From: a virus
IMG/VR virus record: IMGVR_UViG_3300017917_002953
Coordinates: 5,481-69,480 of that record
Direction: 5' to 3' (one strand)
DNA length: 64,000 bases
The stretch's first letter is position 1, and the number at the start of each line of letters is the position of its first letter. The translations under genes were made by a program, and so were the position numbers. Shown piece by piece: positions 2 to 49,439 of the stretch. Below the pieces are notes generated by a model, which saw nothing but the letters and a program-made list of their open reading frames with translations, did no database searches and was not told the DNA's origin.

Positions 2-1507
2 TCCAACATTGATAATATGAATTTTATTTGGGTCTAACCCTAATTTTTCTTTAGTACTTTCTTTTGATAATACAATTGTTGGGGTGTATGGAAATTCAAT
101 AACTTCACCATAAGACGGCATATCTCTAAAGGTTACTTCTTTATGAAATGGTGAACAAAATGCATATGCCTCAGGGTGAAATACTTTTTCAATATTTGGT
201 TGAAATACCACATTATGACATGTTTCAACAACTCTCCAAGTTCGGTCATTTTTATAAATAAAATTCATCAACTCATTTGATAATTTATTATATGAATCGA
301 ATGATTCAATCATCTCATCCAAATGAATTACATCAAAATAATTTTCTTCAATAATTTTCTTCAATTCATTTTTGTCTTCACCTAAGGTCCAAAAATGGGT
401 TGGAGGTATTAACTCTTTAATTCTATTTTTTTGAACAACATAATGGTCACTATGATTGGAATATTCCACCACAAACAACTCAACTTTATCATTGTAATAT
501 TTCAATAACGATTCAATTCGTTTTAATAAAAATGACGGCATACCACCGGTTGATAAATGTGGTGCTAAAAATAATACTCTCGTTTTAACATTAACATTGT
601 CTATAATATCAAACATTTTATCAATTTCGTTTTGTCTTTTTTCACCATGAAAAACTTTAATATAATTCTTATTCTCAGGTATTGTATAAAATTCTTTCAC
701 GACAGTATATTCACCACCTTCAAATTTAAAGAAATGGTTTAATGTTTTTGCACCGTCAACATTTATGTATGATAAAGGTAATCCTTCATGGTTAGGGTTA
801 ATTTTCCAAATTAAAACATTATATATTGTTTCTTCGTGGAATGGGGTTATGGTGTTTAATGAAACTAATTTTGGTAAAATATTTTTTGTGTCTCTCCATG
901 TTTTCAAAAATTCTTTGGTGTTGGAATTACCCACTAAAATATTTGTGGTTCGATAATGACTTCGTTGGTTTGGTTCTAATCCCATAAACTTCATTAACGG
1001 CCATTCTAATGTGTTTTCATAATCAACAGTTCCATCATTCCTCCAAAAAGGGTTTCCGACCAATGAACCATCAGATTTTACCAATAAAACATATTCATGG
1101 GGGCCTAAAGTAGCTAAAGGGAATTCTGTGATTTTTGAACAATACATAAACAAATCATCAACATTTTTATTAACAATGCTGTCAGAATCGATATAAACCC
1201 ATTCATTCAAATGTTGGGTTGCTTCCAACATCACATCTATTTTTGCACCTAAAGCGTAATAACTTCTAATGTGATTTCTATTTACGTATGAATTACCGTT
1301 TGCGTCTTCAATAAATCCCTCATCGTCTAATTTTGGTAAATTTAAATTAACCCTATAACATTTTGTTAGATTTTGTAATTCTTCAGACCCATTATAATCT
1401 ACGGTGTATACGATAATATCGTATTTTGAGTATTTTTTTATACTTTTAACTAAATTTAAAGTTATATGTTCGTAGTTTTTAGTTGTGTGAGTAATAAATG
1501 CTCTCAT
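2..1507 (-). CDS. Bifunctional glycosyltransferase (N-terminal GT-A, C-terminal GT-B/GT4); truncated by the window start
   Basis: Manual translation from ATG 1507, which overlaps the upstream stop (ATGA): MRAFITHTTKNY...WVYIDSDSIV (DxD)...RVLFLAPHLSTGGMP...KIHIINVG. The frame stays open to the window edge. Not in the supplied ORF track. Confidence 0.8.
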   Translation of the reverse strand, partial: MRAFITHTTKNYEHITLNLVKSIKKYSKYDIIVYTVDYNGSEELQNLTKCYRVNLNLPKLDDEGFIEDANGNSYVNRNHIRSYYALGAKIDVMLEATQHLNEWVYIDSDSIVNKNVDDLFMYCSKITEFPLATLGPHEYVLLVKSDGSLVGNPFWRNDGTVDYENTLEWPLMKFMGLEPNQRSHYRTTNILVGNSNTKEFLKTWRDTKNILPKLVSLNTITPFHEETIYNVLIWKINPNHEGLPLSYINVDGAKTLNHFFKFEGGEYTVVKEFYTIPENKNYIKVFHGEKRQNEIDKMFDIIDNVNVKTRVLFLAPHLSTGGMPSFLLKRIESLLKYYNDKVELFVVEYSNHSDHYVVQKNRIKELIPPTHFWTLGEDKNELKKIIEENYFDVIHLDEMIESFDSYNKLSNELMNFIYKNDRTWRVVETCHNVVFQPNIEKVFHPEAYAFCSPFHKEVTFRDMPSYGEVIEFPYTPTIVLSKESTKEKLGLDPNKIHIINVG

Positions 1508-3090
1508 ATTTTCAATTTGTGTATTGATATTAAATTGTTAATCTTATCATAACCTTCAATAATGATTGAATCACCTATAATGTTTTTAGGTAATTCTAAG
1601 TATATTGTTTCTCTATCTGATAATTCGTAGAAATCCATTTCATGAATTATTTCTCTATTTAAATTTTTGATGATGATTTTAATAAATTCTAATTTGTTGA
1701 TTGGTTTGAATGAAATATTATGATTATCATGTCTCATATTAACAATCGCACCACCGGAGAAAAAATTTAAATCACTCAATAATTTAACCCTCTCTTCTTT
1801 TTTATAACCGGTTACATGCACAATAAAATCATTTGGTTCCCATACCAAATTATTAACACCTTTATTATGGAATGTTATAAAAGGTGAATTCATATACCAA
1901 AACGTATTTAAGATTTTTTCATCAATAATTTTTATATGATTTTTAAATTGAGGTTTTAAAATGGTGGACCTAGTCTGTCTTCCCTCATAATCAAATGTGT
2001 GATAATCCATGTTTTTGGGTAAATCCTCACATTTCCAAATATCTTCCAAAATTTGTATTCCCATTTCATCATTTTTAACCAAAAACTGACTTGTAATGAT
2101 ATTATCGGTTTTGAATGGTGTTATGGTTGGGGTGTCAATTGCAGGTACATTATGTGAAGGAACAATAAAAGAATATTTTTCATCAATAATTGTTTCTAAC
2201 TTAATAGTTGAATTCATTATTAAACAATCCAAATCAATAAAAAATAACCAATCAAAATTATCATTCTTTAATATTTCAATTGATTTGGATATTTTAGCCC
2301 AAGATGCATGTCGGTCAAAATTCTCAACTTTATGTGGGATTAAAGTGTATCCATGAATTTCACAATATTGTTGAATATTAGTGTCAACTGTGATTTTTTT
2401 CATTTCTTCATAGTTGTCATCATATACGACTAATACTGCAATTTTTTTAGATGTTACTTTTTTTTTTATCCACCAAGAACCAAACCATTCTTTAGTTACT
2501 TGTGGATTATATTCGTGTTTAGAACAAAACTCATCAACGGCCGGATTAACACCAAATATTCCGTGATAGAAATTACCGCTATAAATGTGTTTATCTTTTT
2601 GATTTTCACAAAAGTTTTGGTCACCATACCAATCCATACGAATATAGTCGTGACCACATAAATAACCACCTTCTTTAATTTTTGGATACCAAAGTTCGAT
2701 GTCTTGAACTACATAGTCATACGCGTGATTTGCGTCAATATAAACAAAATCTAAAGAATTGTCTTCAAACATATCTGCGGCAACTTCTGAGGTTGCTCTA
2801 ACCATAACTGCTCTATCTTCGAATCCTTTAATGTTGTTCATTGCCTCACCATAAACTCCGTTTTCAAAATTTGTGTGATTACTTGAATCTAAATATTCTT
2901 CATTTGATAATGGTCTCCAAACATCTACCATGTATAAAGTACCGGACCAATTATTCATTATTTCTTTTGAAAACTCACCTTTAAATGTCCCGACTTCAAC
3001 ACCTTTTCCTTTTGGAAATTCTTTACCAATTATATTGATTAAATCAGTTCTAGTAAAATCTTGTAAATTCATAATTTTAATTTTATTCAA
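1504..3090 (-). CDS. Class I SAM methyltransferase (Methyltransf_24-like) fused to a GT34-like glycosyltransferase
   Basis: VEVGTFKG, DFVYIDANHAYD and GGYLCGHDY, followed by SWAKI, WLFFIDLDCLIMN and DFIVHVTG. Confidence 0.8.
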   Translation of the reverse strand: MNKIKIMNLQDFTRTDLINIIGKEFPKGKGVEVGTFKGEFSKEIMNNWSGTLYMVDVWRPLSNEEYLDSSNHTNFENGVYGEAMNNIKGFEDRAVMVRATSEVAADMFEDNSLDFVYIDANHAYDYVVQDIELWYPKIKEGGYLCGHDYIRMDWYGDQNFCENQKDKHIYSGNFYHGIFGVNPAVDEFCSKHEYNPQVTKEWFGSWWIKKKVTSKKIAVLVVYDDNYEEMKKITVDTNIQQYCEIHGYTLIPHKVENFDRHASWAKISKSIEILKNDNFDWLFFIDLDCLIMNSTIKLETIIDEKYSFIVPSHNVPAIDTPTITPFKTDNIITSQFLVKNDEMGIQILEDIWKCEDLPKNMDYHTFDYEGRQTRSTILKPQFKNHIKIIDEKILNTFWYMNSPFITFHNKGVNNLVWEPNDFIVHVTGYKKEERVKLLSDLNFFSGGAIVNMRHDNHNISFKPINKLEFIKIIIKNLNREIIHEMDFYELSDRETIYLELPKNIIGDSIIIEGYDKINNLISIHKLKI

Positions 3091-3156: not shown

Positions 3157-3624
3157 ATGATTTCAATAACTTTAACAGGAATAACTGGGACTGCACCATA
3201 TGTAATATCGGTTTGTGATATTACAAAAACTTATTGTTATAATGTTTATACCGGTACACCGACTTTACCTTTAACAGTCGAAGTGCCTTCACAACTATCC
3301 ACCGCGAATCAAGTATTGTTGGATGTTGTGGATTCTCAAAATTGTGATTATTTTCAAATCATATCGTGTATACCATCTTCACCAACACCGACAACGACTA
3401 CAACACCAACTCCCACACCAACACCTAGTGGATGTGCTTGTTTAACTTTTGAGAATACGGGAGTAACAAATGCGAATATTACTTATACTCGATGTGATGG
3501 AGTTATAATTACTGAAACACTTTATGTTGGAACCATATTATATTATTGTGGGGGTAATCCGACTTTTGATGGGGATGTGTCAGTAACAATTGGACCTGCT
3601 TGTGTTAATAATACCTGTATTTAA
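3157..3624 (+). CDS. Small Cys-rich protein with a Pro/Thr linker (putative virion surface protein)
   Basis: GTAPYVISVCD start resembles the starts of ORFs 7175 and 7390; PTPT linker. Confidence 0.6.
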   Translation: MISITLTGITGTAPYVISVCDITKTYCYNVYTGTPTLPLTVEVPSQLSTANQVLLDVVDSQNCDYFQIISCIPSSPTPTTTTTPTPTPTPSGCACLTFENTGVTNANITYTRCDGVIITETLYVGTILYYCGGNPTFDGDVSVTIGPACVNNTCI

Positions 3625-3625
3625 T

Positions 3626-3659
3626 AAAAAAAAAGGGATAGTAGCGAACTTCCCTTTTT
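3626..3659. terminator. Bidirectional intrinsic terminator between convergent genes
   Basis: AAAAAGGGA-(TAGTAGCGAACT)-TCCCTTTTT with A/T tracts on both sides. Confidence 0.7.
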
Positions 3660-3684
3660 AAAAGTCACCTTAACAGTAACGGTC

Positions 3685-3873
3685 CTAAACGTCCTCTTCT
3701 TTGAGAGGTGGCTTCTCAGATTTTGATTTGTATAATTTGAGTAATTTTAAGGAATCTTTATAGTGTTTTTCTAGTCTATCAAGTTCGTCTAATGGTGTAG
3801 TATTTTCACAGGCCAAATAATATTGTTCTTCGGCCTCTTGAATAATTTTTTCTATTGTCGAAAGAAGTTTCAT
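3685..3873 (-). CDS. 62-aa hypothetical helical protein
   Basis: Has its own TATTTATA motif 4 nt upstream and a terminator downstream. Confidence 0.65.
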   Translation of the reverse strand: MKLLSTIEKIIQEAEEQYYLACENTTPLDELDRLEKHYKDSLKLLKLYKSKSEKPPLKEEDV

Positions 3874-3981
3874 ATTATATAAATATCCTGAAGACCTCTC
3901 TTTATTTGTTTTTTTATAAAACTATATTTCTTTTTGAATAAAAACCTATTATCAGGTTATTTATAGTAAATTGAATTTTGA

Positions 3982-6900
3982 ATGGCTTGTAAGTATTATA
4001 ATGTAACGATAAGTGCACTTGATTTAGCGGACGCAACCGGAAACTCTAATCCATCATTAAATGGAGTTGTTTTTGTTAGTTATACCGATTGTTTTGGTTC
4101 GCCAATTGAGACAAGTTATGCGAGTGCGGGTACATATGTTGATGATATATGTGCAGATAATACTGATTTTGTTGGTGTTTTCTATTGGAAAGATAATAGT
4201 CAATTTCTATCAATTAATAGTAGTGCTACAGAGCAAGGTGATTGTTCGGTAGGGACACCAACGCCTACACCAACACCTACTACAACACCTGTTTATATCT
4301 GTGAATATTATGACACATATGTGTATGAATCAGACTTATTATTAGCCACTGGTAATACTGACCCTTCATTAAATAATGTTGTAGTTTATCAATATGCGGG
4401 ATGTGACGGAAATCCTGCGGTTTACAAACAGGGGGTGTCAGGAAATACTTCCAACGCTTTATGTGTTTCTAGTGAAGGTGGGGGATTTATTTTCATATGG
4501 GTTTATACCGATGATGTTCAAAATTTTGCAACTAGTTACGCGACTAATACTACAAATTTATGTTTTGTCCCAACACCAACGCCAACACCAACAAATACTC
4601 AAACACCAACAAATACTCAAACACCAACAAATACTCAAACACCGACTAATACTCCAACACAAACTCCACCCGCATGTTATTATATTGGAAAGTTTTTATA
4701 TAGTTCGGTTGATTGTAATGGTGCTTGTACAAGTATTGAACAAGTTGATTTATATTCAAATACTGAGCCGATAGTACCAGGGTCAATATTATATTCAGGG
4801 ACTTGTGTGACCACTGTAAACGATGGTTATTATTCGTTGGCGTCTACTGCAGGGCCAAGTAATTTAGGATGTTATACAGTTAATGGTGGTAGTGGTGTTA
4901 TTAGTTCATATTCTATCTGTGTAACACCAACACCAACACCAACACCAACAACTACACCGACACCAACTAATACTCAAACACCTACTCAAACTGCAACTAA
5001 AACTCAAACACCTACTCAAACACCTACACCAACAAACACTCCAACAGGAGGGTATATTGTTGAGTTTCAAAGTTGTGTGAATTCACTTAATAAATTTAGA
5101 TTTATTGGATTACCATCGACATTTTCTATCGGTGAAACTTATTTAATTGATAATAGTAGTGAGTATGAAGGTTGCGCTACTGTTGTTACATATACAGGGT
5201 CAGGGCCAATTTATAATGGTTCGGGGGTAAGTTTTACACAAATGAGTTTTGGTTGTGGAGACCCAACATGTCCGACAACAAATAATATTCCGGCCGTACT
5301 TACAAAATGTTCTGACGGGACAATATTATATGCCAATGTTGAAGAAGGAACTGCGTTTGTTGGGGCGGCTTATTTGTATAATGGTGAATGTTATGAGTTC
5401 ATCGAATTCTCAGGACCGGGAGGACCTAATTTAGGGGAACCTGATTACAAAAGTTGTTTATATTGTATTCCAACTCAGACGCCAACACCAACACCTCAAC
5501 CAACACCTACAATAACACCAACACCATCAACAACACCGATTGCGTGTTCAAACAGTGTTTATTGTTTTAGAACTACATTATCATCTTTATCAGGTTATAG
5601 TGGAAATTATACATCTGCTGGTTCATATAATTCAAAACCTTATTATTCGGGAGATTCGGTGAGTACTTCCTTTATTTATTATACCGGAAATTATTGGTGT
5701 TTAAGTGGAAGTTTAGGTGGGTCTTGTTTATTACAGGGGGCAGAACCTTGTTATTCAAATTGTCCTGATATTTCTGCTAATGATTTTTCGGTTGGACCAT
5801 GTCCTTCACCGACACCATTGCCAATTGATTGTTCGACTTTTGATTTTAGTGCTTATTTTGATTGTGATTTTGAGCCGACGCCAACTCCAATCCCGGTTAT
5901 TGATTGTGATGATGTTGATTTTACTATTGATAGTATTGGTGTGACTCCAACACCTTCACCAACACCTACAAGTGCATGTAATTTAACTTCGGTTTCGTTT
6001 AGTTTAAGTTCGTATACGCCATCAACACCAAGTGTTACGGTTACACCATCAGTTACTGTAAGTAATACAGTTCCTGCCGGTGGATTGGTTACATTCAATA
6101 TGATGGAAGATACATTTAAGTGTGTGTTAGTAAAAGTATTGAAACTTTGTTCTGATGGTAGTGAAATATATGTGACAGATGGATTGGTGTATAATAATTT
6201 ACCTTTAACGACCGGAACAACATTCTTGGCTTTAATCAATAATGTTCAAACATGTGTAACTTATGATAGAGATGATTTCAATTTCTCATCTAATGTAAAT
6301 GTTGATTCAATTATAAATGTATACGGTAATTGTGGTGCTTGTAATGTATTACCTACACCAACTCAAACACCAACAACGACTCAAACTCCTACACCTACAA
6401 ATACATCAACACCTACACAAACATCAAGTCAAACACCTACTCAAACTATGACACCAACACCAACAAGAACCCCTAATGGAACTCCACCTGAGACTCCAAC
6501 ACCAACACCAACAAATACACCAACAAATACAAATACGCCTACAAATACAAGAACTCAAACACCAACACCAACACCAACGTCAAAATATGTTTATGTTTAT
6601 GAGAGTTGTTCACCTATTAAAGGTTCTTTGTTTGATTTTACATCACTTAAAACTCAAATTGGACAATCAGTACCACATCCAAATGTTAATATTGGAGAAA
6701 TTTTCGCAGACCAAAATGGTGTTTGTTGGACTTTCTTAGGTCAGTTTGATGCTAATTATTCACCGACACCTCCAAATAGTGTGATTTACACAACATCGGA
6801 TACGGATTATTTCACAATACCGACATTAACGACCTTTATAACTTGTGAAAGATGTGAAAATATTGCGACAATATATAGTTTTGGGGGTTCAAAAGATGGA

Positions 6901-7174: not shown

Positions 7175-7390
7175 ATGGCAATACAAGTAACAATAGATAC
7201 AATCGCAGGACTACCACCATTCGACATTTATATATGTCAATCAAATGGTACGGGTTGTTTTTATATCTCAACTATAGAATCAACACCATATGTGTTTGAT
7301 ATACCCGAACCATATGATAATGCAACAACTTATCAATTAAAAGTAATTGATGGAAATAACTGTACAATAACCGGAATAGAAAGTATATAA
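7175..7390 (+). CDS. Small beta-rich structural protein; same module as the N-termini of ORFs 3157 and 7390
   Basis: GLPPFDIYIC...PYVFDIPEPYD...KVIDGNNC. Confidence 0.6.
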   Translation: MAIQVTIDTIAGLPPFDIYICQSNGTGCFYISTIESTPYVFDIPEPYDNATTYQLKVIDGNNCTITGIESI

Positions 7391-8946
7391 TGAGTCAAGA
7401 AGTAACAATATTATCAGTAACTGCAAACACACCTGTGGATGTGTATTATTGTGATTCGTTTAGTGCGAATTGTGTTTTTGTGGATTCAGTAACCGTGTTT
7501 CCTTTTACTTTTGACGTTCCACCTCCATATGACCAAACAAATATTGTAATTAAAATAATCGATAATGAAGATTGTGTTGATGGTGAAGTAATTCCAATCA
7601 GTCCAACACCGACAAGTAGTGTTACACCGACTATGACGCCAACATCAACTCAAACGCCAACTAATACTCAAACACCAACACAAACCCAAACTCAAACTTC
7701 GACACAGACGGGTACGCCAACTCAAACACCAACAAATACTGTAACTCCAAGTCAAACACCGGTTGCGGCAATTCATTATGTTGGGCAAAATCCTTTTACA
7801 ACTTCAGGTGAAGTCTGTAATGATATTGTTACAATTTTACCATATTATACTTATTTAAGTGAATCAAACAATGTTCCAGTAATTGGTGTTACGGTTTATC
7901 AAACAATTCTTAATGGGGTTCTTTATAACCCATTCAGCGGAGGTGAAAAATATTATAAAATGACATTTGGTGAATATTATTATGCGGTACAAATTAACGA
8001 TGATGGTGAGATAATGTCTTTTAATATCTGTTCGCAGTTAATTACACCAACACCAACGCCAACTATGACATCTACTCAAACTCCTACTAATACATCAACA
8101 AATACTAATACACCAACAAATACACCAACAAATACCTCAACACCTACCAATACTCCAACAAATACTTCAACACCTACCAATACTCCAACAAACACGACAA
8201 CTCCAACACAAACAAAAACACCGGGATTTACACCAACTAATACTCCAACAAATACCTCAACACCTACTCCAACACCAACTAGTTTACCTTTGGCAATATC
8301 TCAATATGGTTATCTTTATAATGAAAATTTTGCTCATGTAAGTAATTTTGCACCAACAGGGTGGAGAATACCCGAATACCACAGTAGTGCCGGAACACTT
8401 AGTGATTTGTTTATATTGATAAATTATATTAGCTCTAATGGAGGAAAATTAAAAAGTATGAGAACCGCTCCTATGGCTCAACCGAGGTGGGAAGTTCCTA
8501 ATACTGGTGCGGTTGACATTTATGGATTTTCGGCTTTAGGTGCGGGATTTAGACAACAAAATGGTAATTTTTGGCCTCTTGGGTACGAATTTAGATTATT
8601 AGGTGGTGGATATGATTATACTGGATTAATCCCTGTTTTTAGTACTCTTCGATTGAGTACTAATAGTTCGAGTGCAACAATTGCAGCAGGTACTAGTATG
8701 CAGAATTATGGTCAATCCGTTCGATTTATTAAAGAAGACCCAAACGATTGGTCTCCGGGTGATACTGTAACGGATTACGAAGGTAATGTTTATAATACTG
8801 TCCAAGTTGGGACTCAAGTTTGGACAGTTGAAAATTGGAGGTCTCTTAAATATTTTGATGGGTCAGATATACCATTAGTTCAAGATAGTTCGGCATGGAT
8901 TGCATTAACAATACCGGCAGCTTGTTATAATACGCTGAATTATTAA
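7390..8946 (+). CDS. Pro/Thr-rich protein with a C-terminal, circularly permuted Fib_succ_major (FISUMP) domain
   Basis: YGYLYN, PTGWRIP, GFSALGAGFR, GQSVRFIK, then DYEGNVYNTVQVGTQVW. Confidence 0.75.
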   Translation: MSQEVTILSVTANTPVDVYYCDSFSANCVFVDSVTVFPFTFDVPPPYDQTNIVIKIIDNEDCVDGEVIPISPTPTSSVTPTMTPTSTQTPTNTQTPTQTQTQTSTQTGTPTQTPTNTVTPSQTPVAAIHYVGQNPFTTSGEVCNDIVTILPYYTYLSESNNVPVIGVTVYQTILNGVLYNPFSGGEKYYKMTFGEYYYAVQINDDGEIMSFNICSQLITPTPTPTMTSTQTPTNTSTNTNTPTNTPTNTSTPTNTPTNTSTPTNTPTNTTTPTQTKTPGFTPTNTPTNTSTPTPTPTSLPLAISQYGYLYNENFAHVSNFAPTGWRIPEYHSSAGTLSDLFILINYISSNGGKLKSMRTAPMAQPRWEVPNTGAVDIYGFSALGAGFRQQNGNFWPLGYEFRLLGGGYDYTGLIPVFSTLRLSTNSSSATIAAGTSMQNYGQSVRFIKEDPNDWSPGDTVTDYEGNVYNTVQVGTQVWTVENWRSLKYFDGSDIPLVQDSSAWIALTIPAACYNTLNY

Positions 8947-8984
8947 ATAAAATAAATAAAAATATAATTATAGAATAAAGAAGA

Positions 8985-11429
8985 ATGCAAGGTATAATTT
9001 GTGGTTTAGGTTTAATTAAACAAAATAGTGAATATAATTACACGGATTGTTGTGGTAATTTCATATCAGGTTTAAATAATACCGGTGGTGATTTGGAGGT
9101 AAATTTTAATTATACTTTACCAAGAGGTGGTGTGGGTAAATTAAATGTACCTGTTAGTGTAACATGTGCTTCACCAACCCCAACCCCAACACAAACAGTT
9201 ACACCAACAAACACTGTTACACCTTCTGTAACTCCAACAAGTACTCAAACTCCTACACCAAGTATTACACCATCAATTACTCCATCAAATAGTCCGGTTA
9301 CAAGGTTAAAGAATAGTTGTGATGTTGTGACTTTATTTAATATGGGTATTTCGTGCAATGTTATTCAAAACCCGTCAAGTCCAACTTCATTGGATGGTAT
9401 AATATCAGTTAATGTTACAGGTGGTACTGCACCATATTCATATTTTTGGGCCGGAGGGCAAAGAACTCAAACATTATTTGGAGTACCACAAGGAACTTAT
9501 GAAGTAGTGGTGACAGACTATTCATGGCCTGATGGAGGTCCTGACTTTACAGCCTCAACGATATGTTCGTTAGTTGGACCAACTCCAACAACAACACCAA
9601 CAATGACACCAACACCAAGTAATACACCACCAATACAATGTGTTGATTTGTGTGTTACTATGACAAGTGAAAGAGGTGTAATTCAATTTGGACCTGCACA
9701 ATTTGTATGTAATGGTTTATTTAACGGTCAATTTAGTTGGTTTGCAGAATCTAACGGAAAACCTTTTTATATTCTATACAATTTGGATAGATATCAAATC
9801 TATAACGATAGTGAGGGTAATGTTCCATATTTCTTTGAAAATAGTGTTGTTGCAACAGATGTATACGCGGCAATACCATTAACAGGTTGGCAATACTATG
9901 GAGGTTTTGCTTCAGGTAATATAACAGTATCTACAGAACCTTGTCCGGAATACCCTCCATTATCACTAAATCTATTCTCAAATAACAATAGTTGTCGAGG
10001 AATGGTTAATTGTGATGGCTCAATTACAGCAAATGTACAGGGTGGTGTTGCGCCTTACTATTATTCAATTAATGATGGTGTGACAACACAAACAAGTCCA
10101 ACATTTAATAATTTATGTCCTGCTAATTATATTGTAACTGTTTATGATTCGGTAGGTAATGTACAATCAAGTAGTGTTGAAATTAGTTTTGAATCTAATC
10201 CAGTGACATATCAATTATCTGTTGTTGATTATGGAACTCCGGTGGTTGGAGGAATACCAAATGTTTCGAATAATTTAACTAAAAACTATAAAATTCAATC
10301 TAACCCACTAATACCTGTTGGTACTAGTGTGACTTTTAATTTAACATTCTCGAATACTAAGACATATGATGGACCTGGTAATGGTACAATAAACAATACC
10401 TTTATTGTATACAAAAATAATGTACAACAAACTGTTAACTTAGTTTCTAATACACCTGTGGTAATAAACAGACCAAATTGTTCACCAAGTCAACAAACAG
10501 GAGTAACCCAAACTAATACAATAACATTAACAATGAGTTCGGGTGATGATATTTTATTGATTGATGCATCTGATTTAACCTTAACAAACCCTCAAGGAAG
10601 TGCTCAAACAAATTGTACTACAAAACTTACTCAATCAGTGACTTCAAATATTACACAAGTTTCAGTTTCGGGTAATGAATGTTCAACTGCTGTTGGAGGT
10701 TCAAGAACTGTTTTAGAAAATTCAATTACTTATGTTCCAACAGTAACACCACCTGATTTACCTTGTTTTGGTTATTTATATAATTTTTATGCAATTACAG
10801 GTTCAACTACACAATCATTAACAAGTAGTGATAGTTGGTCTGTACCAACTCAAACTGATTTCCAAACTTTAATTAATTCAGTTTCTAACAATTCAAGTGC
10901 GTTAAGATTAGTTAATACAACTACTTATTGGAGGGCGAATAATACAAATGCGACAAATACATCGGGATTCAGTGCTAAAGGAAGTGGGTTTAGAGATACT
11001 TTGACCAACGTAGGGTTTACTAATTTAAGAGATGATGTGAATTATCATTCTAAAACACCTTGGAGTGGTGGTCAAAATCTAAGTGTATCGTTATTTCTTT
11101 CTAGTGGTCAAATAACACCTCTTCTTAGTACGTTAAGTGCGAATATTAGAACTGCTGGTAATTCGGTAAGATTGGTTAAAAATACAACACAATTATTACC
11201 GGGTCAAACAGGTACATACGTTGGTAATGACGGAAAAACATATAATACAATATGTATAGGTACTCAAGAATGGATGTCAGAAGATTTACGAGAAACTCAA
11301 TATAGAAATTCAACGGCAATACCGAATGTAACCTCTCAATCAACTTGGTCAGGGTTAACCACAGGAGCTTATTGTATTTACAATAATGACCCAACTAATG
11401 TTGGAGGATGTACTGAAAATTTACCATAA
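8985..11429 (+). CDS. Surface protein with two SprB-like repeats and a permuted FISUMP domain
   Basis: GIISVNVTGGTAPYSYFW and GSITANVQGGVAPYYYSI (SprB-like); FGYLYN...SVRLVK...GNDGKTYNTICIGTQEWM. Confidence 0.75.
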   Translation: MQGIICGLGLIKQNSEYNYTDCCGNFISGLNNTGGDLEVNFNYTLPRGGVGKLNVPVSVTCASPTPTPTQTVTPTNTVTPSVTPTSTQTPTPSITPSITPSNSPVTRLKNSCDVVTLFNMGISCNVIQNPSSPTSLDGIISVNVTGGTAPYSYFWAGGQRTQTLFGVPQGTYEVVVTDYSWPDGGPDFTASTICSLVGPTPTTTPTMTPTPSNTPPIQCVDLCVTMTSERGVIQFGPAQFVCNGLFNGQFSWFAESNGKPFYILYNLDRYQIYNDSEGNVPYFFENSVVATDVYAAIPLTGWQYYGGFASGNITVSTEPCPEYPPLSLNLFSNNNSCRGMVNCDGSITANVQGGVAPYYYSINDGVTTQTSPTFNNLCPANYIVTVYDSVGNVQSSSVEISFESNPVTYQLSVVDYGTPVVGGIPNVSNNLTKNYKIQSNPLIPVGTSVTFNLTFSNTKTYDGPGNGTINNTFIVYKNNVQQTVNLVSNTPVVINRPNCSPSQQTGVTQTNTITLTMSSGDDILLIDASDLTLTNPQGSAQTNCTTKLTQSVTSNITQVSVSGNECSTAVGGSRTVLENSITYVPTVTPPDLPCFGYLYNFYAITGSTTQSLTSSDSWSVPTQTDFQTLINSVSNNSSALRLVNTTTYWRANNTNATNTSGFSAKGSGFRDTLTNVGFTNLRDDVNYHSKTPWSGGQNLSVSLFLSSGQITPLLSTLSANIRTAGNSVRLVKNTTQLLPGQTGTYVGNDGKTYNTICIGTQEWMSEDLRETQYRNSTAIPNVTSQSTWSGLTTGAYCIYNNDPTNVGGCTENLP

Positions 11430-27045: not shown

Positions 27046-27843
27046 ATGAAAGAAAAGGCGGGTATACCAATCAATCAAGAAGAAATTAGCCATTATTTAA
27101 AAGACATTCGAAAATTAAAAGTGATGACACCTGAAAGGGAAAGGGAGTTGTCGGAACTAATCTTAAAGGGTGACTTATCAGAGGTTGAAAAACAAAAAAT
27201 CAATAAGGAATTATTGGAAGGTAATTTAAGGTTTGTGATTACGGTTGCAAAACAATACCAAAATCAAGGATTGGATTTCCCTGACTTGGTTGCTGAAGGT
27301 AATCTTGGATTAATGAAAGCAATTGAAAGTTTTGATTGGTCCAAAAAGTTGAGATTTATATCTTATGCGGTTTGGTGGGTTAGACAATCAATATTACAAT
27401 CTTTAAATGAAAACGCAAGAACCATCCGTCTTCCGGTGAATGTGGTTCAAGAATTACAAAAGGCGAAAAAAGATTTGGAAAAGGCTGGTGTGGATATGCC
27501 GGAGAAATTTGCCAACTTACCTTATACCATTAACTTGGATAATCCATTGAATGATGAGGGTGATACATTGGTGGATGTGTTGAATAACCCCAATGCTGAA
27601 TTACCGGATGCCGGATTATCGACCGAGAAAACATTAAAGGATAAATTATATCAAATGTTGGATGTTTTGGATGATAGGGAAAAAGTTATTATTCAGGATT
27701 ATTTTGGATTATCGGGGTCAACAAGAACCTTGGAAGATATTGGGAATGACTTCACATTGACCAAAGAAAGGGTTCGACAAATTAAAGAAAAGGCGTTGAG
27801 GAAGTTGAGAAACGAGACATCAACTCTGTTTGATTACTTATAA
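27046..27843 (+). CDS. RNA polymerase sigma-70 factor, Bacteroidota RpoD-like (no region 1.1)
   Basis: NLRFVITVAKQYQNQGL..DLVAEGNLGL; RFISYAVWWVRQSILQ; TLEDIG...TKERVRQIKEKALRKL. Confidence 0.92.
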   Translation: MKEKAGIPINQEEISHYLKDIRKLKVMTPERERELSELILKGDLSEVEKQKINKELLEGNLRFVITVAKQYQNQGLDFPDLVAEGNLGLMKAIESFDWSKKLRFISYAVWWVRQSILQSLNENARTIRLPVNVVQELQKAKKDLEKAGVDMPEKFANLPYTINLDNPLNDEGDTLVDVLNNPNAELPDAGLSTEKTLKDKLYQMLDVLDDREKVIIQDYFGLSGSTRTLEDIGNDFTLTKERVRQIKEKALRKLRNETSTLFDYL

Positions 27844-43158: not shown

Positions 43159-45429
43159 ATGGCTAAAAACATATTAATAGTACCAAGTAATTCAATTGCT
43201 CCGCAACCGGACAATGTACCTTTTTTTGATTTCGAGAACACTGGCTTAATTAAATTAAAAGTTATTGCCAATGGAACTTTAGTGTTTAGTAGTGCCACCG
43301 AAGATGAAGTACTTTATATTAATGATAAAGAAGTTAGAGTAGGAAATAATTTAGATGTTATAGATTATTTCGAAGTAAATGGTACTCAAGTTATTAATGG
43401 TACGGGTGATTGGATAGGTCCTACAACAAATATTGAAGGTGCTCAAGGTGCAACGGGAGCTAAAGGTGATACGGGAGATACAGGAGATACGGGTAATACC
43501 GGTGCTCAAGGTGCTGCTAGTGTGGTTTCAGGTGCTCCCGGACCAACAGGTCCAACCGGTGCACAAGGACCTCAAGGTAATAATGGTATTTCGGGGTCTA
43601 CGGGTCATATAGGAGTTACTGGTGCCACAGGTCCTAAGGGAGTTGCCGGTGCTACGGGTCCTCAAGGTCCTCAAGGTTTACAAGGCCCCCAAGGTTCACA
43701 AGGTACGGTAGGTCCTCAAGGTTCTACAGGACCAACAGGACCGACAGGAGCGATTGGTCCAAATGGACCTTCAGGTGATATTGGTGAGGACGGAGACACG
43801 GGAGGAAATGGACTAACAGGATTTGCCGGGCCACAAGGTGTACAAGGTTCACAAGGGGGGCAAGGTTCTCAAGGTGCGACCGGTAATACAGGGGCTCAAG
43901 GACCGCAAGGACCTCAAGGTTCTCAAGGTAATTCCGGAGCACAAGGGGTTATAGGTCCCCAAGGTGCTCAAGGAAATACAGGTGCCCAAGGTTTTACTGG
44001 ACCACAAGGTGCCCCGGGTGTCCAAGGATTGACGGGACCACAAGGAGCTGCGGGATTTACAGGACCGACAGGTGCTCAAGGACCAACAGGTGCCACGGGT
44101 CCTACGGGACCAACAGGGCCTACGGGACCAACAGGTGCTGTGGGACCAACAGGGTCTCCCGGAGCAACCGGTCAACCCGGACCTGCTGGTGCGACAGGGC
44201 ATTCAGGTGCTCAAGGACCTCAAGGACCTCAAGGATTTCAAGGTCCGACAGGGTTCGTAGGAGGGCAAGGAACTAGAGGACCTCAAGGCTCTCAAGGTCC
44301 CCAAGGATTCCAAGGGGCTACCGGATTTGCTGGTCCTATTGGAGCTCAGGGTTCACAGGGGTTACAAGGGTCTCAAGGTGCAACGGGTAATCGAGGACCA
44401 CAAGGGTCTCAAGGACCAACAGGAGCTACAGGTCCTACGGGACCTACCGGTAATACAGGTTCTCAAGGACCACAAGGGTCTCAAGGTGCCACAGGTGGGA
44501 CAGGTTTTCCGGGACCTAATGGTCCACAAGGTGCTCAAGGTGCTCCCGGTAATACAGGTGCAACCGGACCTCAAGGTGCTCAAGGACCTCAGGGTGCTCA
44601 AGGGTCCGCAGGGCCTCAAGGTGCTCAAGGGGGTCAAGGGTTTCAAGGTACTCAAGGAGGTCAAGGATTTCAAGGTGAGTTTAGAACAGGTCCTCAAGGT
44701 AATCAAGGTGCTCCCGGTCCAACAGGTGCTCAAGGTGTTCTTGGACCAACAGGTGCTCAAGGAGCCTCAGGCTCATCACCTACAGGTGCTCAAGGTGCTC
44801 AAGGGTCTCAAGGAGCGTCAGGTCCTGCTCTTGCGACATGTACATCCTCAAGTTTAACTTATTGGAATGATTGTAGTGAACCTTGTGCTGGATTCAAAGG
44901 TAATACAATAACTATTTGGATGCAAAGTTCAGGTGACCCTTATCCCACATATAGATTTAGGACACAGAGTAATTGTCAAAATAGTATTTGTGATTGGAAT
45001 ACATACATACCTGTAGGTGGAGCAAGAAACTTTTTTTGTATAACTTATGACCCAGATTGTGGATTTATTGTAGACCAGTTTGATTGTTTTCAATATTCTG
45101 ATGTTAGATTAAAAGATGGTATTGAAACTTTAGAAAATTCATTAGAGAATATAATGAAGATTGATGCCGTTGAATATGATTGGAATAAAAATTTAAATCC
45201 TAATATGTATGAATTTTTCTTAAAACAAGATAAACTACATACCATAGGTTTAATTGCTCAAAATGTTAGATTATATTATCCTGAAGTTGTGAATATGAAT
45301 GATGAAGGGTATTACTATATTGACTATCAAAAACTAAATTCAGTTTTAGTTGAAGGTATTAAAGATTTACAGTATGAGATTCAAGAAATTGATAAAGAAT
45401 TAGATGAAATTGAATTAAAACTTAGTTAA
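43159..45429 (+). CDS. Collagen-like fibre with a Cys-rich domain and a peptidase S74 chaperone
   Basis: Long Gly-X-Y run; [20 protein letters not shown]. Confidence 0.85.
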
Positions 45430-47462
45430 TGGCAAATATCATAATATATCCCCAAGGTAATGTTGGAAATACTGACCCACATATGGTTTTCGATGATGGG
45501 TCATCAAAGTTGCAATTCAATGTTAAAAATGGGTTTTTATCATTATCATCGTCCACAGTTAGTGATGGGGTAAATATTGGACCCCAAAATGTTAGAGTTT
45601 CAGGTGCGACAATTACAGGACCTAGTGCTTCTTTAGTTGTGGGTGGTGTTCAAATGATAAATAGTTCAGCTGTATGGGTTGGACCTCTTGAACCGTTGAT
45701 TGGGTTTCAAGGTGCTCAAGGAGCTCAAGGTTCTAAAGGAAGTACAGGTGCTCAGGGTGCTCAAGGTGCTCAAGGACCTATCGGTGCTCAAGGGTTTCAA
45801 GGATTTACAGGTCCAACAGGATTTGTCGGACCTAATGGACCTCAAGGTGCTCAAGGTGCTCAAGGTGCTCAAGGAGTAACAGGTGCTCAAGGTGCGACAG
45901 GTTCACAAGGTGCACAAGGGTCAATTGGTTTTACAGGACCAATTGGTATATCAGGAAGTACAGGTATTGGCGGAGGTACAGGATTTGCGGGTGCGACAGG
46001 ATTAACAGGCGCTCAAGGGCCAAGCGGACTTCGAGGTGCTCAAGGTGCTAAAGGTTCACAAGGTGCTCAAGGACCTCAAGGGCCTCAAGGTCCACAAGGA
46101 TTTAAAGGTGGTACAGGACCAACAGGTCCACAAGGAGCTCAGGGGGCTCAAGGATTAAACGCTGGTGCGACAGGTCCAACAGGTCCAACAGGTTCACAGG
46201 GTTCTCAAGGAGCACCGAGTTCAGTCCAAGGTTCACAAGGAGCTCAAGGTGCTCAAGGTTCTCAAGGACCACAAGGGTCTCAAAGTGCCGTGTCAGGTGC
46301 ACAAGGACCACAAGGTTCTCAAGGGCCACAAGGATTTGCCGGTGCTAATAGTAGTGTTCAAGGTGCTCAAGGTGCTGCGGGAAACACAGGGGCTCAAGGA
46401 CCTCAAGGTTCTCAAAGTGTGGTTTCAGGGGCTCAAGGATTTACGGGTTCACAAGGAGCTCAAGGTTCTCAAGGGGCTCAAGGTACAAATGCCGGTGCCA
46501 CAGGACCTCAAGGTGCTCAAGGTCCTCAAGGACCTCAGGGTGCCACGGGTTCAAATTCAGCGGTTGCTGGTGCGACCGGACCACAAGGGCCTCAAGGTAC
46601 TCAAGGACCTCAAGGTGCAACACAAGGAGGACAAGGATTTACAGGACCACAGGGTGCTCAAGGTTCACAAGGGTCTACGGGGTCAGTTCAAGGGGCTACA
46701 GGGCCACAAGGGGTTCAAGGTGCTGCAGGTCTGCAAGGGGCTCAAGGAGCAAACGCAGGTGCTACAGGACCACAAGGTTCTCAAGGAGCCCAAGGTGCTC
46801 AAGGGCCATCCAATGGTACAGGACCTCAAGGTTCTCAAGGACCTCAAGGTTCTCAAGGTGCCGGAGGTTTACAAGGTTCACCTGGACCTTCAGGTCCAAA
46901 TGGACCACAAGGGTTTCAAGGGGTTCGAGGTCCACAAGGGGCTCAAGGGGTTCGAGGACCACAAGGAGCTCAAGGTAGTCCAGGGTTTTCAGGTGCTCAA
47001 GGTGCGACAGGGCCTCAAGGTTCTCAAGGGGCTGCAGGTGCTCAAGGTAGTCAAGGGGCTCAAGGTACGACTATACAAGGATTTCAGGGGTCTCAAGGTG
47101 CTGAAGGTGCTCAAGGTGCTCCTTCAGATAGGAGATTGAAAGACAACATAAGACCAATTGTTAATGTTTTATCGATAACAAAAAATATTCAGGGTGTTTT
47201 ATTTGAATGGGATAATAAACATACAAAAATAAAAGACAATAAATCTATTGTGTTTCAAGAAGCGTTTTCGGGTGACTCAATAGGATTTATTGCTCAGGAT
47301 TTAGAGAAAGTAGTTCCTGAAGTTGTCTTTACTGATGATAAAGGATGGATGAGCGTGAATTATGGTCAAATGGTTAGTTTAGGTATTGGTGGTGTACAAG
47401 AACAAAAAAGAAGACTTGATTCAATTTATGATAGAATAAATAAATTAAAAGAACTTATATAA
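45429..47462 (+). CDS. Collagen-like fibre with a peptidase S74 chaperone
   Basis: Gly-X-Y run; PSDRRLKDNI, IGFIAQDLE. Confidence 0.85.
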   Translation: MANIIIYPQGNVGNTDPHMVFDDGSSKLQFNVKNGFLSLSSSTVSDGVNIGPQNVRVSGATITGPSASLVVGGVQMINSSAVWVGPLEPLIGFQGAQGAQGSKGSTGAQGAQGAQGPIGAQGFQGFTGPTGFVGPNGPQGAQGAQGAQGVTGAQGATGSQGAQGSIGFTGPIGISGSTGIGGGTGFAGATGLTGAQGPSGLRGAQGAKGSQGAQGPQGPQGPQGFKGGTGPTGPQGAQGAQGLNAGATGPTGPTGSQGSQGAPSSVQGSQGAQGAQGSQGPQGSQSAVSGAQGPQGSQGPQGFAGANSSVQGAQGAAGNTGAQGPQGSQSVVSGAQGFTGSQGAQGSQGAQGTNAGATGPQGAQGPQGPQGATGSNSAVAGATGPQGPQGTQGPQGATQGGQGFTGPQGAQGSQGSTGSVQGATGPQGVQGAAGLQGAQGANAGATGPQGSQGAQGAQGPSNGTGPQGSQGPQGSQGAGGLQGSPGPSGPNGPQGFQGVRGPQGAQGVRGPQGAQGSPGFSGAQGATGPQGSQGAAGAQGSQGAQGTTIQGFQGSQGAEGAQGAPSDRRLKDNIRPIVNVLSITKNIQGVLFEWDNKHTKIKDNKSIVFQEAFSGDSIGFIAQDLEKVVPEVVFTDDKGWMSVNYGQMVSLGIGGVQEQKRRLDSIYDRINKLKELI

Positions 47463-49439
47463 GTGGCTGAGAATATTATTATAACCCCAGGTAGTGGTAC
47501 AATCGATTTAACTAGTTCGTTAAATGTTACAACTAATCTTGTAATTGAAACGGGTTCGTTAAAATTTAAAAGAAGTACAACCACTATATTTCAAATGGAT
47601 AATACATATCCAAATTTTAGAGTTAATACTAATGACGGATTATATGTAATTAATACATTTGTTAATAATTATGGACCTTTAATTAATTCTACCGGTTGGT
47701 TAGGTAATAGACAACCTACAGGTGCTCAAGGGTCCCAAGGAGCTGTGGGGGCTCAAGGTTCTCAAGGTTCTCAAGGAGGCTCAGGTGCTCAAGGAACAAA
47801 AGGTCCTCAGGGGTCGCAAGGACCACAAGGACCGCAAGGTGCAAATGGACCACAAGGTTCTCAGGGTCCACAAGGTGCTCAAGGAGTTCAAGGTTCTCAA
47901 GGACCTGTAGGACCTCAAGGAGACCAAGGACCGCAAGGACCACAAGGACCACAAGGTGCCCAAGGTGCTCAAGGTGCCCAAGGTGCTCAAGGTGCTCAAG
48001 GTGCGCAAGGACCGCAAGGTTCTCAAGGAGGTCAAGGTCCTCAAGGTGCTCAAGGTGCTAAAGGACCTCAAGGAACTCAAGGTACAACACCAGGACCTCA
48101 AGGTCCTCAAGGTCCTCAAGGTGCTATTGGTGCTGCGGGGCCAACAGGTGCAACAGGGCCAACGGGAGGACAAGGTGCTCAAGGTTTTCCGGGACTACAA
48201 GGTGCCCAAGGAGTTTCAGGGCCAACAGGACCACAAGGAACTCAAGGTGCAATAGGTTCAACAGGTGCTACAGGTGCTACAGGTCCAACAGGTGGACAAG
48301 GGGCTCAAGGACCAACAGGACCAACAGGACCACAAGGGCCTCAAGGTTCTCAAGGTGCAAGTGGAAGTCAAGGTTCTCAAGGACCACAAGGCTCACAAGG
48401 TTCAGCCGGACCAACGGGTACTCAAGGAGCCCAAGGTCCTCAAGGTGCCACAGGTCCAACAGGTCCAACAGGTCCAACAGGTGGTCAAGGTGCTCAAGGA
48501 TTTACAGGACCAACAGGACCAACAGGTCCACAGGGAGCTCAAGGACCTATCGGTGCCCAAGGATTCCAAGGTTCTACAGGTCCAACAGGGTTTGTTGGGC
48601 CAACAGGAGGACAAGGTGCTCAAGGACCTCAAGGTGCTACAGGTCCAACAGGTGGAACCGGACCGACAGGACCTCAAGGATTTCAAGGTGCTACAGGGCC
48701 TCAAGGTTCACAAGGTCCACAAGGTTCACAAGGAGGTCAAGGTGCTCAAGGTGTTGTCGGTGCTATTGGTCCTGTAGGTGCTCAGGGTGCTCAAGGTGAT
48801 AAACCATTTGGTGCTCCCGGACCGACAGGTCCTCAAGGAGTTCAAGGTTCAACTGGTGCTCAAGGTCCTGTAGGATTTCCTTCAGTTGCGTCAGGTTCTC
48901 AAGGTGCTCCGGGAACAGTTCAAGGTTCTCAAGGTGCTCCGGGAGGAACTCAAGGTGCTCAAGGTGGTGGAGTTCAAGGTGTTCAAGGTTCACAAGGTGT
49001 AGCACCGACAGGTGCTCAAGGAACGAAAGGTCCTCAAGGGGCTCAAGGAAATAAAGGAATTGGAGCTGAAGGTGCTCAAGGTGCTCAAGGTGCTCAAGGT
49101 GCGACTCCTTCAGATAGAAGAATGAAGAAAAATATTCGTGAAATTGAAAACCCGTTGGAAAAAGTTATGAAATTAAGGGGTGTTTCGTTTATTTGGAATC
49201 AAAATAAAAATATACCAAACTATGGTAAAGATATTGGTTTCATTGCTCAAGAAGTTGCACATGTATTACCTGAATTAGTTTTCAAAAAAGATAGTGAAAA
49301 TTCGTTTTATCAAGTTAAGTATCATGATGTTATTGCACTTTGTTTGGAGGCGATTAAGGAACAATCTAAATTGATTGAATTAAGAGAAGAGAGATTAAGT
49401 AAGTTAGAAAATAAAGCAAAAGAAAAGGGACTAATTTAA
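47463..49439 (+). CDS. Collagen-like fibre with a peptidase S74 chaperone
   Basis: Gly-X-Y run; [24 protein letters not shown]. Confidence 0.85.

Follow-up and report, generated by a model that had tools for sequence, protein, structure and literature searches.

A recurrent structured RNA of uncultured phages presents two invariant segments complementary to adjacent sites of 23S rRNA

Introduction

Small RNAs of bacteria and phages pair with mRNAs, and, to our knowledge, RNA guides directed against rRNA are known only in archaea and eukaryotes. Here we describe a small RNA element encoded on the minus strand of a 64,000-nucleotide (nt) stretch (hereafter the window; positions 5,481 to 69,480) of the IMG/VR virus record IMGVR_UViG_3300017917_002953, a 69.5-kb record of about 31% GC, estimated to be 24% complete and without rRNA. 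Two short segments of the element, called block 1 and block 2, are antisense to adjacent sites of 23S rRNA around helices 69 and 70 (H69, H70). An original prediction, made from the letters of the window, placed both in the 3' untranslated region (UTR) of a 62-amino-acid (aa) open reading frame (ORF) and proposed that this mRNA pairs with the 50S subunit near its own stop codon. We suggest a different reading, to which we assign a probability of roughly 0.5: the element could be a trans-acting phage RNA, putatively pairing with 23S rRNA at the H69-H70 junction.

Terminator-ended base-pairing small RNAs of enterobacteria, including the phage RNA DicF, resemble the element in size, in a single-stranded seed on the 5' side, in internal hairpins, in an A/U-rich stretch and in a terminator with a U tail, and they are likewise single-copy and often derived from 3' UTRs. 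Their targets are mRNAs, whereas the presumed target here is the mature 23S core; the element also has a second seed in the terminator loop, and its seed does not change between phages that have their nearest relatives among viruses of different host phyla. The archaeal and eukaryotic rRNA guides (box C/D and H/ACA) are also small structured RNAs with 6-12 nt antisense to conserved rRNA, and the two guide parts could flank one unpaired nucleotide in both cases, here G1929. In contrast, the element has no visible boxes (neither the C/D consensus sequences RUGAUGA and CUGA nor the H/ACA counterpart, an ACA box located 3 nt before the 3' end and accompanied by a pseudouridylation pocket, were found in the window copy, by eye and without a formal scan), and its guide order is permuted relative to the H/ACA pocket. 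We know of no box C/D or H/ACA guides in bacteria or phages. In group II introns, the exon-binding sites EBS2 and EBS1 recognize the intron-binding sites IBS2 and IBS1 through two short antisense segments that lie in separate loops, in the same 5'-3' order as their targets and with the second one in a terminal hairpin loop, as in the element; the latter, of about 90 nt and ending in a terminator, lacks all other intron domains.

Other systems are closer in their association with the ribosome. The 3' enhancers of plant viruses, such as T-shaped structures (TSS) and barley yellow dwarf virus-like translation elements (BTE), are structured 3' elements of viral mRNAs with ribosome affinity and are the nearest analogue of the cis-acting role in the original prediction; they are eukaryotic and act in cis on initiation, whereas several copies of our element lie outside mRNAs. 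In Helicobacter pylori, an antisense RNA to the 23S precursor is reportedly cis-encoded and is said to pair with the leader and not with the mature core, to serve RNase III processing and not to be phage-borne. In being a natural antisense RNA that acts on an rRNA precursor in a bacterium (PMC6582327), it resembles the proposed role of the phage element. A synthetic peptide nucleic acid (PNA) against H69 blocks translation according to the account in a review (Kulik 2017, in PMC12828698), and as an antisense oligomer to H69 it indicates, in that account, that the site can be invaded; it differs from the element in being artificial and contiguous, in covering H69 only and in its PNA backbone. 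The small stable RNAs rnaC and rnaD of phage T4 (NC_000866) lie near tRNA genes, as do the copies of the element at loci L097 and L071, and have no sequence relation to it: their longest 23S complements are of 8-9 nt and located elsewhere, and they are without UAGGACCG. The 5' hairpin of rnaD (species 2; NC_000866 71053-71171; L380 3054-3172), ACCGG-GUCGCUA-CCGGU, shares the string UCGCUA with block 2.

Results and discussion

Two antisense segments in the window

In comparison with the rrlH gene of E. coli K-12, TAACAGTAACGGTCCTAA on the plus strand (3671-3688) matches 23S positions 1911-1928 in 16 of 18 nt and GTAGCGAACTTCC (3641-3653) matches positions 1930-1942 in 12 of 13 nt, as had been predicted. 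The longest exact cores, read on the minus strand, are a 12-mer, block 1, which is the complement of 23S 1917-1928, and an 8-mer, block 2 (Table 1). The 16/18 and 12/13 matches are properties of the window copy and not of the whole family.

Within the window alone, the two-block match is not significantly beyond chance. First-order Markov shuffling of the window produced an exact 12-mer to 23S rRNA on either strand, with an 8-mer at most 70 nt away and rRNA targets at most 5 nt apart, in 43 of 300 cases (mean of 0.22 per shuffle). The single copy noticed originally is indeed single, each block being found once, as frequently as in the shuffles. When the gap between targets is loosened to at most 30 nt, two further unrelated sites appear in AT-rich coding sequence of the plus strand (27611-27640 and 58340-58411). 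In each of them a 12-mer lies close to an 8-mer, both antisense to 23S 2170-2230; the two sites look like chance and provide an internal control for rRNA matches of this two-block type. The case for more than chance comes from recurrence and conservation outside the window and not from its statistics.

Recurrence in viral and cellular sequences

The pattern of block 1, a spacer of 10-40 nt and block 2, read on the minus strand, was searched in IMG/VR, a search that the original prediction had proposed for phage genomes, and the motif proved recurrent, in at least 120 stretches. Each of the IMG/VR scans (two-block, block-2-free and block-1-free) covers at least 120 stretches, and a scan of metagenome contigs at least 119. 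Among the matches listed, there are 99 distinct forms, 89 with a common plan of two hairpins (P1 and P2) and a terminator and 10 of a GC-richer variant. Pooling all scans, we obtained at least 177 distinct copies with flanks, from uncultured phage contigs; these counts are lower bounds, since more divergent members are possibly missed by pattern scans.

The same pattern was searched in one genome per species of 185,579 bacterial and archaeal species (596 Gb), with 50 matches. About 41 of them are true 23S genes, which match via a lineage-specific second TTCGCTAC located 39 nt further on, about 8 look like chance or coding matches, and one is a phage-type element on a 3.7-kb contig of a metagenome-assembled genome. 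About 8 matches per 596 Gb are thus attributable to chance, and outside viral contigs the element is practically absent. In some 23S genes of Acidobacteriota and one of Acidimicrobiales (L127, L129, L136, L151 and L165), the flank just upstream of TTAGGACC, in the antisense reading, departs from the 23S sequence shared by the other matches, which we read as an inserted element beside the stretch complemented by the phage RNA.

A variable scaffold around the two blocks

The minus strand of the window between 3621 and 3716 folds into three hairpins with a minimum free energy (MFE) of -23.8 kcal/mol (ViennaRNA), with UUAGGACC between P1 and P2. Several details of the original prediction hold in this fold: the UAG stop of the 62-aa ORF is within UUAGGACCGUUA, and block 2 occupies the loop of the terminator hairpin P3 (UCGCU, 3643-3647), followed by a run of nine U (U9). 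A stable hairpin directly followed by a U run is what is expected for an intrinsic terminator, and at least four T are found within 30 nt after block 2 in 88 of the 99 distinct copies. A simple terminator scanner did not call P3, since it is restricted to loops of 3-8 nt, a size that the P3 loop exceeds; it called a weak hairpin on the plus strand at 3700-3720, which is the complement of P1.

The family plan comprises about 70-95 nt: P1, the exposed UUAGGACC, a covarying P2, an A-rich linker and P3 with a CGCUA loop. When folded sequence by sequence with ViennaRNA, with block 1 positions 1-7 and CGCUA forced unpaired by construction, a P3 of at least 4 bp around CGCUA is present in 177 of 177 distinct copies, with 100 distinct 5' strands, and a P2 of at least 4 bp between the blocks in 171 of 177. 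P2 position 12 shows compensatory pairs (A-U in 143 copies, G-C in 8, C-G in 2), and positions 13-15 have four to five pair types each. P1 is more variable, with at least 4 bp ending at most 6 nt from block 1 in 113 of 177 copies (50 distinct 5' strands), while in 23 of 177 an upstream ACGG forms an alternative stem with the CCGU of block 1. An alignment of 89 sequences (MAFFT and RNAalifold) recovers P3 only, with 7 pairs that each have at least 24 sequences changed on both sides; P1 and P2 were assessed per sequence because they are misaligned between classes in that alignment. In unconstrained folding of the 177 copies, the unpaired probability is 0.52-0.63 for block 1 positions 1-8, 0.12-0.21 for positions 9-12 and 0.95-0.98 for the loop bases CGCU.

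Three scaffold classes can be recognized. Class A, to which the window copy belongs, is AT-rich and has the P1 hairpin; class B has an ACGG...CCGU stem enclosing AUUAGGA; class C is GC-richer and without terminator, and its block 1 is in a large hairpin loop. In class C, a pseudoknot between the second hairpin loop and the 3' tail covaries (GCUCGA/UCGAGC, GCCAC/GUGGC, GGCCCCGG/CAGGGGC). We are highly confident that these copies form a genuine, selected and structured phage RNA family.

This family is previously undescribed. Rfam 15 at gathering threshold found in the whole window only a tRNA, described below; at E <= 10, the best match between 3500 and 4000 was STnc290 (E = 1.8), aligned to the terminator only, and five loci of classes A2, B and C had no match on the element at E <= 5. 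Literature searches by concept and by sequence string, conducted outside supplements, retrieved no account of the element or of a natural RNA pairing with H69. A group I or II intron was rejected, given the absence of Rfam intron matches and the size of about 90 nt; in group I introns, moreover, the internal guide is colinear with the exon junction, an order from which that of the two guides here would depart. Two possible extensions of the antisense were discarded as well. The P2 of the nrdA subclass, CCGUUAUAGUUAACGG, could be seen as a near-full antisense of H69, but the fixed CCGUUA leaves only a 4-nt loop free, and the upstream GGAUUCGCC of class C needs 4 gaps to be antisense to 23S rRNA and is also coding (K-D/N-S-P-stop).

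Conservation of the two blocks

The variation of each block was read from the scans of which it was not part. In the block-2-free scan, the exact UUCGCUAC is found in 61 of 74 distinct elements among the matches listed, and a recount of 73 among the matches listed gave the variants U1A (4), U1C (3), U2C (1) and C8U (5); class C has AUC-, ACC- and CUC-GCUAC. The block-1-free scan of IMG/VR yielded 71 elements among the matches listed, after 11 stretches were dropped as non-elements, with only A3G (2), A6G (4) and C7U (10) as variants, and that of metagenome contigs 56 elements among the matches listed, after 51 stretches were dropped, with only A6G (2), C7U (6) and C8U (2). Both samples together have 26 variant elements in 127 among the matches listed, all A>G or C>U.

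Three additional samples were drawn by synteny of the upstream proteins, being thus blind to both blocks. In these, the element is either canonical or absent, and the variants C7U, C8U, A6G, U10C and the P2-compensated A12G and A12C are added. Within the exposed core, U2, G4 and G5 never change and U1 changes once, while all four wobble-capable positions (A3, A6, C7 and C8) vary, solely in the pair-keeping direction. These changes correspond to about 10 independent-looking events, for which we estimate a probability of about 0.001 if transitions were equally frequent on A/C and on G/U.

The block 1 substitutions in the block-1-free samples are all compatible with pairing to GGUCCUAA, suggesting an RNA partner of constant sequence. 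Since the asymmetry is strand-specific, it identifies the minus strand of the window as the RNA strand, in agreement with the strand chosen originally. The target proposed at that time, H69-71, has to be narrowed to the 3' strand of H69 with its junction to H70, as only about UAGGACCG and CGCUA(C/U) are invariant.

The presumed partner

No partner complementary to the blocks was found in the window, and both strands of five large phage records contain nothing besides their own block-1 matches (reversed controls, 0). In E. coli K-12, GGTCCTAA followed by GTAGCG within 40 nt is found solely in the 7 rrl genes, with the same 2-nt gap; a reversed control pattern gave 8 matches against the 7 real ones, so that the count is uninformative and it is the identity of the sites that matters. 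In a Leeuwenhoekiella genome, the second host-type genome searched, the same search returned solely two neighboring sites on one contig, in the 23S stretch (L130). Among 121 Bacteroidota genomes, TAACGGTCCTAAGGTAGCG is present in 53 and a variant at 1921-1926 in none, five other matches being unrelated. With a target invariant in these 53 genomes, the variants of the element would wobble-pair with it and do not track host changes.

The exposed conserved seeds are complementary to a single rRNA site: the two invariant segments map to adjacent positions, on the same strand, of a universally conserved rRNA stretch. Block 1 (12 bp) has a predicted duplex energy of -18.3 kcal/mol, of which -12.0 is reached with its first 8 nt alone; the value predicted for block 2 is -10.9. 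Since the same two cores are kept in three scaffolds, in relatives of phages with different hosts, a universally conserved partner is called for. Taken as a pattern of sequence conservation, the conserved segments support a partner with the sequence of 23S 1921-1928 and 1930-1935.

Genomic context and carriers

The carriers are uncultured T4-like and jumbo phages. The ribonucleotide reductase (RNR) context of the element is closest to Flavobacterium phage immuto (67-68% nt), as is the terminase of a class B carrier (31% aa), while the DNA polymerase of a class C carrier is closest to those of Sinorhizobium phage Phosso (50% aa) and Agrobacterium phage Atu_ph07 (47% aa). The hosts of the nearest cultured relatives are thus Flavobacterium for classes A and B and Sinorhizobium or Agrobacterium for class C. 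In the window, two large proteins encoded at 7390-11429 (+) have Fib_succ_major domains, one of them also with SprB repeats, which suggests a Bacteroidota-type host surface interaction. The DNA runs with the stretch are labelled as pond or freshwater metagenomes.

No copy was found in cultured or GenBank phages by blastn with the versions of the window, L008, L022, L005 and L012, short-query blastn being insensitive; a P-HM2 match (E = 9) lies inside coding sequence on the opposite strand and was dropped. Pattern searches did not find the element in immuto, and in Phosso, Atu_ph07 and the uncultured LR756508 they gave no more matches than reversed controls, none with the core. Five large records, two of them complete (321-322 kb), have one or two block-1 matches each. 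The complete 322-kb record (L300) contains, besides a canonical element, a second block-1-like site, TTAGGGTCGTTA, on the opposite strand (G001:C1:122535-122546).

No RNA data set is listed for the window between 3300 and 4100. In four runs guessed to be RNA, contigs of relatives, about 90% alike and from two of the runs, cover 3626-4076; among 40 of their 71 differences, those within the element are at 3663 and 3666 (linker and P2). As assembled contigs, they do not bear on transcription, ends or strand.

The features of the locus are listed in Table 1. The 62-aa ORF, without Pfam or PHROG match, is a real conserved small gene with 21 related IMG/VR loci, but the element is behind it in only 3 of 15 distinct forms (window, L340 and L346), and in two other records with this gene the element is located elsewhere. 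The convergent 155-aa ORF, with a PT-rich linker and a Cys-rich end, has no family match. Pfam and PHROGs gave no informative function for neighbor proteins of the family, except for a radical-SAM protein downstream in class C, the gene of which starts about 70 nt after the element (e.g. L005 3200-4336; PHROG 14086, E = 3e-15). Also in class C, a conserved 81-aa protein precedes the element and ends in ...KDSP at the UAG of block 1.

Table 1. Features of the RNA element and its flanking ORFs in the window
Feature	Position	Strand	Basis and remarks
Convergent 155-aa ORF	3157..3624	+	would share P3 as terminator
Whole RNA element (P1, block 1, P2, linker, P3 terminator, U run)	3626..3712	-	about 87 nt; MFE fold
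U run after P3	3626..3634	-	sequence and fold; U9
P3 terminator hairpin	3630..3659	-	fold; loop and closing bases hold block 2
Block 2, UUCGCUAC	3641..3648	-	complements 23S 1930-1937; invariant core CGCUA(C/U)
P2 hairpin, GUUACU/GGUGAC	3664..3680	-	fold; U.G pair at 3678/3666
Block 1, UUAGGACCGUUA	3677..3688	-	positions 1-8 exposed; 9-12 are the 5' strand of P2
UAG stop of the 62-aa ORF	3685..3687	-	inside block 1
62-aa ORF	3685..3873	-	C-terminus runs into P1 and block 1
P1 hairpin, CCUCU/AGAGG	3693..3708	-	fold; within the 3' end of the 62-aa ORF

The Rfam tRNA at 63779-63909 (+) has 38.6 bits and covers the full model (1-71) spread over 131 nt, while ARAGORN finds none; an insertion of about 60 nt is implied, and it may be an intron-containing tRNA gene. 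A GC-rich island at 44001-48000 (0.46 against about 0.31 elsewhere) covers large plus-strand ORFs (43159-45429, 45429-47462 and 47463-49439). At 1504-3090 (-), a 528-aa protein has Methyltransf_24 fused to a GMA12/MNN10-type galactosyltransferase domain.

Alternative explanations

A real structured RNA in which the loops serve as protein-binding sites or take part in a tertiary contact, the 23S complementarity being coincidental, would account for the compact fold of class C with its covarying pseudoknot, and it is helped by a block 2 of which the invariant part has only 5-6 nt and by a family that was ascertained via its rRNA likeness; by inspection, the UAG of block 1 and the CUA of block 2 could also give a 3-bp loop-loop contact. 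We regard this as unlikely, since it does not predict changes solely of A>G and C>U with G and U fixed, nor two segments mapping to adjacent sites of one conserved rRNA stretch, and no conserved neighbor protein exists, the downstream ORFs falling into 50 clusters. The cis-acting role conceived originally, in which a 3' UTR element holds the 50S at its own stop codon and affects termination, recycling or subunit joining, was put forward with reference to H69, which makes up bridge B2a and is in contact with release and recycling factors. The upstream ORF does stop at the UAG of block 1 in the window, L340, L346 and class C, and 79 of 99 distinct copies are at most 70 nt from the end of a frame of at least 50 codons. 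That frame, however, ends at the UAG itself in 8 copies only, 1-70 nt upstream in 71, and is lacking in 20; given 8 of 99, the overlap with the stop codon is incidental. In L097, the 70 nt that separate two tRNA genes of a large array are taken up by a copy without ORF and without U run, another copy follows a tRNA gene (L071), and the upstream genes are mutually unrelated (class I RNR alpha, a 167-aa protein, acidic proteins, the 62-aa protein, tRNA genes). With one or two block-1 matches in each of the five large records, a couple of mRNAs at most would be served. The link to termination and recycling at its own stop codon was accordingly abandoned as very improbable, while the RNA strand and the displayed segments of the original prediction were retained, and the conservation of these segments fits pairing.

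The neighborhood of tRNA genes in L097 and L071, together with a tRNA-like size and three hairpins, could also indicate a mimic of a tRNA or of the tRNA elbow, or a tRNA-derived processing signal for RNase P/Z, a modifying enzyme or the ribosomal tRNA sites. The tRNA cloverleaf is characterized by its acceptor stem and 7-nt anticodon loop and by U54, U55, C56 and A58 in the T loop; by inspection against this consensus, the ACGG-AUUAGGA-CCGU of class B is similar to a D arm, as is GUUCGCUAC to a T loop. Conversely, the Rfam tRNA model is silent on the element at E <= 5-10 (window, L097, L071, L012, L005 and L022), ARAGORN finds none, there is no acceptor stem, P2 ends in tetraloops instead of an anticodon loop, and the D-arm-like stem is restricted to 23 of 177 copies. 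The pattern of conservation is also the reverse of that of a T loop, with the equivalents of U54/U55 varying, CGCUA fixed and a C at the A58 position, which makes a tRNA-related origin very unlikely. The alternative of a DNA-level relic, decoy or half-site of an I-CeuI-type homing endonuclease target, raised with the original prediction, or of a recombination site, draws on the fact that this rRNA stretch is a classic homing site, on the 23S genes with a diverging upstream flank that we read as an insertion, and on the free-standing endonucleases that are often contained in regions beside nrdA in phages. It is contradicted by hairpins (P1-P3) that covary as RNA and by strand-asymmetric substitutions; the halves are permuted and 28 nt apart, the contiguous form that such a site needs (1911-1937 of the rDNA) occurs solely in true 23S genes, and no endonuclease gene is a constant neighbor, so we consider it extremely improbable. 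As to pure chance likeness in an ordinary bidirectional terminator, the shuffles of the window produced comparable two-block matches, as reported above, but it is refuted by the recurrence of the invariant blocks in 177 distinct copies whose scaffolds have diverged, against a background of about 8 per 596 Gb of cellular genomes, and its probability is practically nil.

Several observations weigh against a trans-acting RNA that pairs with 23S rRNA. The family was found through its 23S likeness, so this likeness is partly ascertained. The target is base-paired in the mature 50S (H69 stem and H70), and pairing would need its unfolding. Block 2 contributes 5-6 invariant bases only, and its first two U vary in a way that breaks the pairing with A1936 and A1937. 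The wobble test depends on about 10 events at 4 sites, and one U1C at the edge of block 1, found in the synteny samples (class C, L361), is not wobble-compatible, being the exception to the pair-keeping changes of the seed. Related phages without the element indicate that it is dispensable: distinct syntenic loci lack it in 5 of 20, 7 of 22 and 12 of 15 cases in the three samples, and a pattern search of a complete 317-kb relative with the 62-aa gene found none. The host assignments are also indirect.

Proposed function and implications

If the element acts in trans by pairing with 23S rRNA, the variable covarying scaffold (P1, P2 and P3) would display two invariant segments, UAGGACCG in the single-stranded joint and CGCUA(C/U) in the P3 loop, as pairing seeds. 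The seed of block 1 would pair with host 23S 1920/1-1928 (3' strand of H69 plus the joint after it) and that of block 2 with 1930-1935 (the start of H70), and G1929 would stay unpaired where the two helices meet on the rRNA. As the most likely consequence, and at the same time in the most speculative step, the RNA would capture 23S rRNA outside the 70S ribosome (nascent, in late-assembly 50S or in free 50S) and block the folding of H69 or bridge B2a, so that in infected cells the biogenesis of host ribosomes, the joining of their subunits or the stability of rRNA would be altered. Candidate outcomes could be a block of late 50S assembly, an anti-association effect that splits the subunits or keeps them apart via H69 and bridge B2a, a marking of rRNA for cleavage and decay with salvage of its nucleotides, considering the subset of elements directly behind nrdA, or the exposure of G1929 or of the H69 loop to an enzyme. 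It is conceivable, at somewhat less than even odds, that T4-like and jumbo phages of aquatic bacteria have a dedicated guide-like RNA that addresses the host 50S or its precursor by Watson-Crick pairing.

According to the same review account, a synthetic antisense oligomer against H69 was already tried as an antibacterial (PMC12828698). Should the rRNA link fail, the element would still represent a widespread structured phage RNA family outside Rfam, with three scaffold variants and clear covariation. If the pairing is real, the element would be the first known case of a natural RNA directed by base pairing at the mature core of a bacterial rRNA. It could then serve to probe how 50S particles assemble and subunits join and to design antibacterials of the antisense type, and it would reveal an RNA-based route of phages to the ribosome itself, as a new mechanism of host takeover.

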